This document shows positions 12,011 to 12,256 of a stretch of DNA of 64,000 nucleotides, piece after piece. Both the position numbers and the translations under genes were made by a program. The stretch is from positions 429,056 through 493,055 of the forward strand of contig JAENYV010000001.1 in NCBI GenBank assembly GCA_016841605.1, given 5' to 3'. How positions within the stretch are numbered: position 1 is the stretch's first letter; each line of letters opens with the position of its first letter. The notes beneath the pieces were generated by a model, which saw nothing but the letters and a program-made list of their open reading frames with translations, was not told the origin of the DNA and did not search any database. The stretch is from Dethiobacter alkaliphilus. GTDB taxonomy: Bacteria > Bacillota > Dethiobacteria > DTU022 > UBA8154.

Positions 12011-12256
12011 GGCAATGAAGCCTTGGGAAGATTCTTCTTCCCGGGGCTTTTTGGATTATAGAATTAGGACGTTATTAAGGCAATGAAGCCTTCGGGAGGC
12101 TCTCCTCCCGGGGGCTTTTTCGATCTTTTTATTACGCACGTGTCCATTTTAATGAAGGCAATGAAGCCTTGGGAAGATCTTTCTTCCCGGGGCTTTTTTT
12201 ACTTAAGGCAAGGGAGCCATTGTACCGTTGTTTTTTCCGGTGTAATGGCTTTTTTT
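12011..12256 (+). promoter_or_regulatory. Four tandem terminator-like modules (AAGGCAATGAAGCC box, GC-rich hairpin, U-tract) in the nifH upstream region
   Basis: The modules lie at 12011-12052, 12079-12120, 12157-12200 and 12207-12256. Each starts with GGCAATGAAGCC (module 4: GGCAAGGGAGCC). Each forms a 10-12 bp stem followed by T5-T7. Stem changes between modules 1 and 2 are compensatory. Confidence 0.7.

Follow-up and report, generated by a model that had tools for sequence, protein, structure and literature searches.

The window analysed here, a single stretch of 64,000 nucleotides (64 kb), comes from a Firmicute-like spore former and carries a nitrogen fixation operon on the plus strand (Table 1). 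The operon opens with nifH, whose TTG start codon at 12282 is preceded by the ribosome-binding site GGAGGG at 12269-12274. It closes with an AnfO-like ORF (20587-21237), a member of a family named for iron-only nitrogenase clusters, at the end of a nifHI1I2DKENB cluster that otherwise looks to be of the Mo type. The nifN and nifB ORFs overlap by approximately 160 nt in different frames. The genes directly upstream of the nif leader encode toxin-antitoxin proteins and lie on the opposite strand. Two type II toxin-antitoxin pairs are found between 10391 and 11649, one of them Phd/ParE on the plus strand; the other, on the minus strand, combines a PHD_like antitoxin and a HicA-like toxin. Three small ORFs around the leader (11606-11860, 11748-11993 and 12083-12469) are without a family match and were rejected as genes.

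Table 1. Coordinates of the nif and amtB-glnB leader elements, the nif operon and a related terminator in the 64-kb window
Feature	Position	Strand	Details
Diverged fifth copy	8969-9016	+	3' of the gene for a 1970-aa SLH/S-layer protein; box UGC[AAUGAG]GCC, 2 bp; -22.7 kcal/mol
Predicted sigma-70-type promoter of the nif operon	11940-11968	+	TTGGCA-17-TATAAT, 11/12 matches
Weak candidate P1 of M1	11990-11999	+	AU[AAUGAC]AU, 2-bp stem, 11-nt linker to P2
Module 1 (M1)	12011-12052	+	P2 hairpin GGC[AAUGAA]GCC 12011-12022; terminator stem 12018-12031 paired with 12036-12049; U5 12048-12052
Marginal candidate P1 of M2	12062-12073	+	AAU[UAGGAC]GUU, 3-bp stem, U at loop position 1, 5-nt linker
Module 2 (M2)	12079-12120	+	P2 12079-12090; terminator stem 12086-12099 paired with 12104-12117; U5 12116-12120
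Module 3 (M3)	12157-12200	+	P2 12157-12168; terminator stem 12164-12177 paired with 12182-12195; U7 12194-12200
Module 4 (M4)	12207-12256	+	P2 GGC[AAGGGA]GCC 12207-12218; terminator stem 12210-12227 paired with 12238-12255; U7 12250-12256
nif operon	12282-21237	+	nifH (TTG start), nifI1, nifI2, nifD, nifK, nifE, nifN, nifB, AnfO-like ORF; assigned with Pfam
amtB-glnB leader module	21394-21463	+	P2 AGU[AAUGGC]GCU 21394-21405; long terminator 21400-21457; U8 21456-21463

In front of nifH the first-pass annotation had placed four tandem terminator-like modules, and all four are present on the plus strand with T5, T5, T7 and T7 runs and with 25 nt between the end of M4 and the nifH start. Their stems are longer than the 10-12 bp originally assigned, at 14 bp in M1 to M3, two G-U pairs included, and 18 bp in M4. 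RNA folding gives terminator free energies of -25.0, -26.8, -25.0 and -19.9 kcal/mol for M1 to M4, respectively; none of 200 shuffles folds equally well in any of the four cases, and the 316-nt nifH leader has a folding z-score of -7.4. A 12-mer box marks each module, GGCAATGAAGCC being exact at 12011, 12079 and 12157, with GGCAAGGGAGCC at 12207. No further exact copy of either box occurs on either strand of the 64-kb window and the suggestion of a dispersed, REP-like family is not borne out there. The region matches no Rfam family at gathering thresholds. Matches to His_leader and PyrR (E ≤ 10) are sub-threshold and driven by the terminators, and were rejected.

Alignment of M1, M2, M3 and the diverged copy at 8969-9016 over the 14-bp stem reveals standard pairs in all 56 cells, with three pairs changed on both sides. 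Compared with M1 and M3, M2 carries three compensatory pairs, whilst the former two differ from one another in the loop alone and so are a recent duplicate. The compensatory changes reported earlier are therefore real, but the selection read into them extends only as far as terminator folding. These changes say simply that the terminators must fold; the conserved feature that is informative is the hexaloop hairpin formed by the box.

The same alignment bears on the proposal that a dimeric repressor uses the palindromes, with their GGAA-N8-TTCC cores, as DNA operators. Inverted repeats can be operators and M1, M3 and the copy at 8969-9016 do share their arms. However, the arms of M2 and M4 differ with pairing kept, which indicates that an RNA structure is conserved and not a DNA recognition sequence. 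In addition, a T run follows every repeat, the invariant part is the box, which lies outside the palindrome core, and neither the nif leader nor the amtB-glnB leader contains a TnrA/GlnR-type box. We regard the operator explanation as most improbable.

The predicted promoter of the operon gives a predicted transcription start near 11975, approximately 36 nt 5' of M1. No other promoter-like site was found on the plus strand from 11650 to 12282 and none falls inside the array. Since the sole promoter-like site precedes M1 and the ribosome-binding site fills the 25 nt after M4, any nifH transcript, given the predicted start, must cross all four terminators, which agrees with the earlier reading. 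A set of ordinary constitutive terminators, duplicated or drawn from a dispersed family and insulating nif while nifH is expressed by other means, is very unlikely in this setting. Such terminators would silence nif, as there is neither a promoter-like site in the array nor room for one after M4. The neighbouring upstream genes are on the other strand, and the exact boxes are confined to the nifH leader in this window. In other genomes the element occurs 5' of nitrogen genes rather than being scattered over random 3' ends. What can be said for this explanation is that M1 and M3 are near-identical and that a related copy, at 8969-9016, lies 3' of an unrelated gene and before the next promoter.

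That fifth copy, found by eye, retains the GGGAAGA/UCUUCC core of the stem. The predicted sfsA promoter (9126-9154) is downstream of it, for which reason it is most likely a plain terminator; the role first ascribed to it, that of an ordinary terminator after the surface-protein gene, stands, but its box is degenerate and pairs over 2 bp. It looks like a duplicated module that may now serve as an ordinary terminator. When both strands of the window were scanned for the hexaloop structure, the amtB leader came up as well, along with a few chance-like matches in coding sequence. One P2-plus-terminator match, at 30178, falls within the gene for an ABC-2 permease and was put down to chance.

The box had been described as an element upstream of the stem. 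Its last 5 nt in M1 to M3, and last 9 nt in M4, are in fact the 5' base of the terminator stem, so that the 3' half of one hairpin is common to the other. Alone the box forms a 3-bp hairpin with a hexaloop, GGC[AAUGAA]GCC in M1 to M3 or GGC[AAGGGA]GCC in M4, and all four hexaloops have A at position 1 and G at position 4. The hairpin is worth -2.8 kcal/mol by itself, as against -19.9 to -26.8 kcal/mol for the terminators. A weak hairpin that needs the same bases as a strong terminator is the defining P2 anatomy of ANTAR antiterminator targets. Three features of such targets are present, namely the A1/G4 hexaloop, the overlap with a terminator and a position in the 5' leaders of nitrogen genes (nif and amtB-glnB). 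We consider that the nifH leader is probably a four-stage ANTAR-type transcription attenuator, a reading to which we assign a probability of about 0.8. As each terminator is overlapped by an ANTAR-type hexaloop hairpin, the leader would represent an unusually long example of a known nitrogen-controlled switch and not a new mechanism.

Comparisons with characterized systems inform on this assignment. ANTAR proteins act as activated dimers that bind the hexaloop hairpin and block terminator formation (PMC3369931; PMC8934654). In Geobacter sulfurreducens GnfK and GnfR, the latter an ANTAR protein, control nifH by antitermination; GnfR binds nifH RNA at CAGGCAANGGCGCC, and deletion of gnfK or gnfR leads to premature termination of nifH transcripts (PMC2995071). 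The GnfR site corresponds to GGC[AANGGC]GCC, near-identical to the GGC[AAUGAA]GCC observed here. The target gene is the same and in both cases a leader terminator is overlapped by the conserved site. The Geobacter system differs in that it uses an RpoN promoter together with the GnfL/GnfM cascade and is described with a single terminator signal in each leader, whereas here we note a sigma-70-like promoter and four modules.

A 2012 study (PMC3369931 Table S2) also predicted ANTAR RNA sites 5' of nitrogenase operons in three species of Desulfotomaculum, D. carboxydivorans, D. kuznetsovii and D. acetoxidans, the last with a tandem pair. These organisms share with the window a phylum-level lineage, an operon of nitrogenase and two PII genes, and the tandem arrangement. 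Their sites are predicted matches to a dual-hairpin covariance model, with at most two per leader, in contrast to the four, essentially P2-only, sites of the window. The first-pass annotation knew of no such mechanism for nif genes in Firmicutes, a view that does not hold given the demonstration of GnfK/GnfR control in Geobacter (PMC2995071) and these Desulfotomaculum predictions (PMC3369931). We found no experimental test of nif ANTAR antitermination in a Firmicute in the literature, and nif goes unmentioned in a 2025 review of RNA-binding antiterminators.

The ethanolamine utilization (eut) genes of Enterococcus faecalis, under EutV/EutW, provide a further parallel (Ramesh 2012, PMC3369931; Walshe 2022, PMC8934654). 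There the P2 hairpin, GGC/GAGC[AAAGRA]GCC/GCUC, overlaps the terminator stem, and several attenuators per locus occur also, in the form of four T-loops. The published P2 seed includes E. faecalis eutP (GGC AAAGGA GCC) and eutS (GAGC AAAGAA GCUC), with A1 and G4 conserved, and Listeria monocytogenes eutA (AAGC GAUGAA GCUU; PMC3369931 Fig. S1). The eut sites have a well-formed P1 of 4-6 bp placed 5-12 nt upstream and are spread between genes, whereas the nifH leader of the window packs four into 270 nt, with P1 weak or lacking. The NasR/nasF leader of Klebsiella and the NasT systems likewise set a hexaloop hairpin against a terminator in front of nitrogen-assimilation genes, although they use other sensors (a NIT domain or the NasS partner), have one attenuator per operon and serve nitrate assimilation rather than nitrogen fixation.

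What is unusual here is the number of copies, the most in our survey, together with the weakness or absence of P1. None of M1 to M4 has the classical upstream P1 hairpin of the dual-hairpin motif. There is a weak candidate before M1 and a marginal one before M2 (Table 1), and no P1 hairpin was found before M3 or M4. The seed for our dual-hexaloop covariance model combined nine dual-hairpin sites of the surveyed loci with six eut sites taken from the literature. The model scores M3 at 19.3, M1 at 18.4, M2 at 13.7 and M4 at 9.5 bits, and in none of the four does the P1 half align without deletion or mispairing. The M1 candidate is aligned with two of the four P1 pairs deleted, the M2 candidate is left unused, the M3 score is obtained with the P1 loop deleted, and the P1 pairs of M4 are all non-canonical. 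Over both strands of the window M3, M1 and M2 nevertheless rank first to third and M4 sixth. Canonical dual-hairpin sites score 23-38 bits, but these are mostly seed members and so match by construction.

How far the lack of P1 matters depends on what constitutes a minimal site. The EutV-RNA structure led to the minimal binding motif being redefined as a single hexaloop, with successive binding of P1 then P2 proposed (Walshe 2022, PMC8934654), and in other genomes a clear P1 (at least 4 bp) accompanies only about one fifth of the exact-box sites. As the single hexaloop is the redefined minimal site and P1 is scarce at exact-box sites elsewhere, the claim that the modules are classical dual-hairpin ANTAR substrates is weakened, and the claim that they are ANTAR-type attenuators is not.

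The distribution of the element was assessed in four independent ways. A search of a species-representative genome collection for the exact 12-mer with a matching terminator foot gave at least 119 loci. Among the matches listed 86 have at least eight contiguous stem pairs, and 78 distinct downstream ORFs were identified, mostly nitrogen genes. These 78 include 17 for AmtB, 13 for MFS transporters, four or five for molybdopterin nitrate reductase, three each for EutA, homocitrate synthase (nifV), PII and nitrite-reductase-type proteins, and two each for GOGAT, NifH and urea/amide-type binding proteins. Again among the matches listed, loci with the 12-mer and terminator are spread over many phyla, and seven have a Pfam-confirmed ANTAR gene within 8 kb. 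In Vibrio, Alteromonas and Sphingopyxis the exact 12-mer precedes nitrate/nitrite genes.

The second approach was a terminator-first scan of 160 loci, mostly from Firmicutes, chosen by similarity of their NifH to that of the window. An overlapping hexaloop hairpin was found at 17 of 22 nifH-leader terminators, as opposed to 9 of 87 in the remainder of these loci (Fisher p = 1.5e-9). Counts per leader were the third approach. Modules are present in 32 of 150 other nifH leaders (approximately 21%), 19 having one, 12 having two and one having three, compared with six of 150 leaders, each with one module, in a reverse-complement control. The four modules of the window form the largest array in this 150-leader survey. 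Leaders with modules are mostly those of Peptococcaceae-like MAGs, Clostridia, Lachnospiraceae and Negativicutes. Comparison of nifH leaders between genomes, which had been recommended at the outset, shows that the hairpin stems covary (GGC/GCC, AGC/GCU and GAC/GUC). Exact boxes in tandem were also sought in other genomes; of 126 hits three are true tandem arrays and the rest mostly chance matches in coding sequence.

Two further arrangements were observed among these genomes. The Lachnospiraceae-type nifH leaders (L009, L010, L018, L021 and L064) share GAC[AGAGAC]GUC or a variant of it, and approximately 10-20 nt 5' of the hairpin all five conserve AATTGCA, which has no obvious stem and may be a lineage-specific replacement for P1. 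In an Acidobacteriota MAG (L292:3488-3720) three near-identical 75-nt repeats, each with GGCAAGGGAGCC, make up a stacked array; a terminator bearing a clean T run comes after repeats 1 and 2.

Pfam on scanned ORFs of at least 120 aa, a motif scan in six frames and tblastn with three REC-ANTAR proteins as queries all detected no ANTAR-domain gene (PF03861) in the 64-kb window. The fourth approach concerned the closest relative found, 'Firmicutes bacterium HGW-Firmicutes-8', with a NifH 83% identical to that of the window and two modules in its nifH leader. That genome encodes a REC-ANTAR response regulator (L189:2226-2846, on the same contig as L001) 5.2 kb upstream of nifH, and its asparagine synthase gene asnB (L189:5001-6980) is preceded by a canonical dual-hexaloop site with an exact GGCAATGAAGCC. 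At another nifH locus (L242) a REC-ANTAR regulator gene adjoins nifH.

These data allow an assessment of whether the same site-by-site attenuator might be read by something other than an ANTAR protein, either a different RNA-binding protein or direct contact with a metabolite or an RNA. The absence of an ANTAR gene from the window, the weak or missing P1 of the classical definition and the lack of an Rfam family at threshold would all be compatible with a different reader. However, the same 12-mer occurs before eutA, nitrate-assimilation and amtB genes, some of them beside ANTAR genes, the box is near-identical to the experimentally bound GnfR site, and a REC-ANTAR gene is found near nifH in the closest relative. 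A 12-nt hairpin is too small for a ligand-binding aptamer, and nothing positive favours such a reader, which we judge distinctly unlikely.

On the ANTAR reading, transcription would start at the predicted promoter and each module would by default fold into its terminator and stop the transcript, since terminators of -20 to -27 kcal/mol compete with a hairpin of -2.8 kcal/mol. Under nitrogen limitation an activated dimeric ANTAR regulator, most likely a REC-ANTAR response regulator encoded outside the window, probably beside glnA or gltB as in Desulfotomaculum, would grip GGC[AAUGAA]GCC as it emerges. Binding would tie up AAGCC, the foot of the terminator stem by the U tract, and allow RNA polymerase to continue. 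Such rescue would be needed at each of the four modules before nifH could be transcribed. With four terminators in series, termination in the OFF state would be multiplied and the response to regulator activity should be steep. A tight OFF state suits an enzyme as costly as nitrogenase.

Of the two forms of antitermination raised in the first-pass annotation, factor-dependent control is the best-supported reading, whilst processive control, in which one upstream signal makes RNA polymerase ignore all four terminators, is scarcely probable. Serial terminators before one operon are certainly a setting where a processive system helps. For systems of the N/nut, Q, put or RfaH/LoaP type, though, a separate overlapping box at every terminator would be superfluous; that feature is diagnostic of hairpin competition, and single-module versions are common in other leaders.

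M3 and M4, and effectively M1 and M2 also, are without a loading hairpin of their own. This raises the idea of a relay, in which the hairpin held at one module acts as a functional P1 for the next and an ANTAR dimer is handed down the four terminators; we consider it unlikely that either this or a non-ANTAR reader in the lineage accounts for the leader. Should the relay operate, it would give a steep, near-digital nitrogen switch and an ANTAR mode not yet described.

The amtB-glnB operon, 9 kb downstream of nif, has one like module and so the two operons probably form one regulon. The P2 hairpin in that leader overlaps the 5' arm of a terminator of -30.1 kcal/mol. A promoter-like site is located at 21307-21335 ahead of it, and amtB (21657-22841) and a PII gene (22894-23244) follow. 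This module fits a small regulon such as described in Geobacter and predicted in Desulfotomaculum. The amtB/PII operon is co-regulated in the Geobacter Gnf system and the leader sequence suggests the same here. The sequence upstream in the amtB-glnB leader also holds AUUGUA, the P1 loop sequence in relatives, without a stem.

The means by which strictly anaerobic Firmicutes switch on nitrogenase are poorly documented experimentally, and the nifH leader offers a clean, testable case of ANTAR-type antitermination rather than control by a NifA- or GlnR-type transcription factor. The many nifH-leader units without a classical P1 in our survey bear on a question posed by the study of the EutV-RNA structure, namely the extent to which single-hexaloop sites are used. 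Four stacked attenuators are also a natural part for very tight, nitrogen-responsive control of expression.

Further along the window, four paralogues of UbiD-family decarboxylases are encoded within 15 kb (44056-45405; 48309-49748 and 50434-51858, both on the minus strand; 57461-58855). Near them are genes for a PucR-type GAF regulator and for TRAP-type transporter proteins (a DctM component and an NMT1-like binding protein). This region may be an aromatic-acid decarboxylation island.
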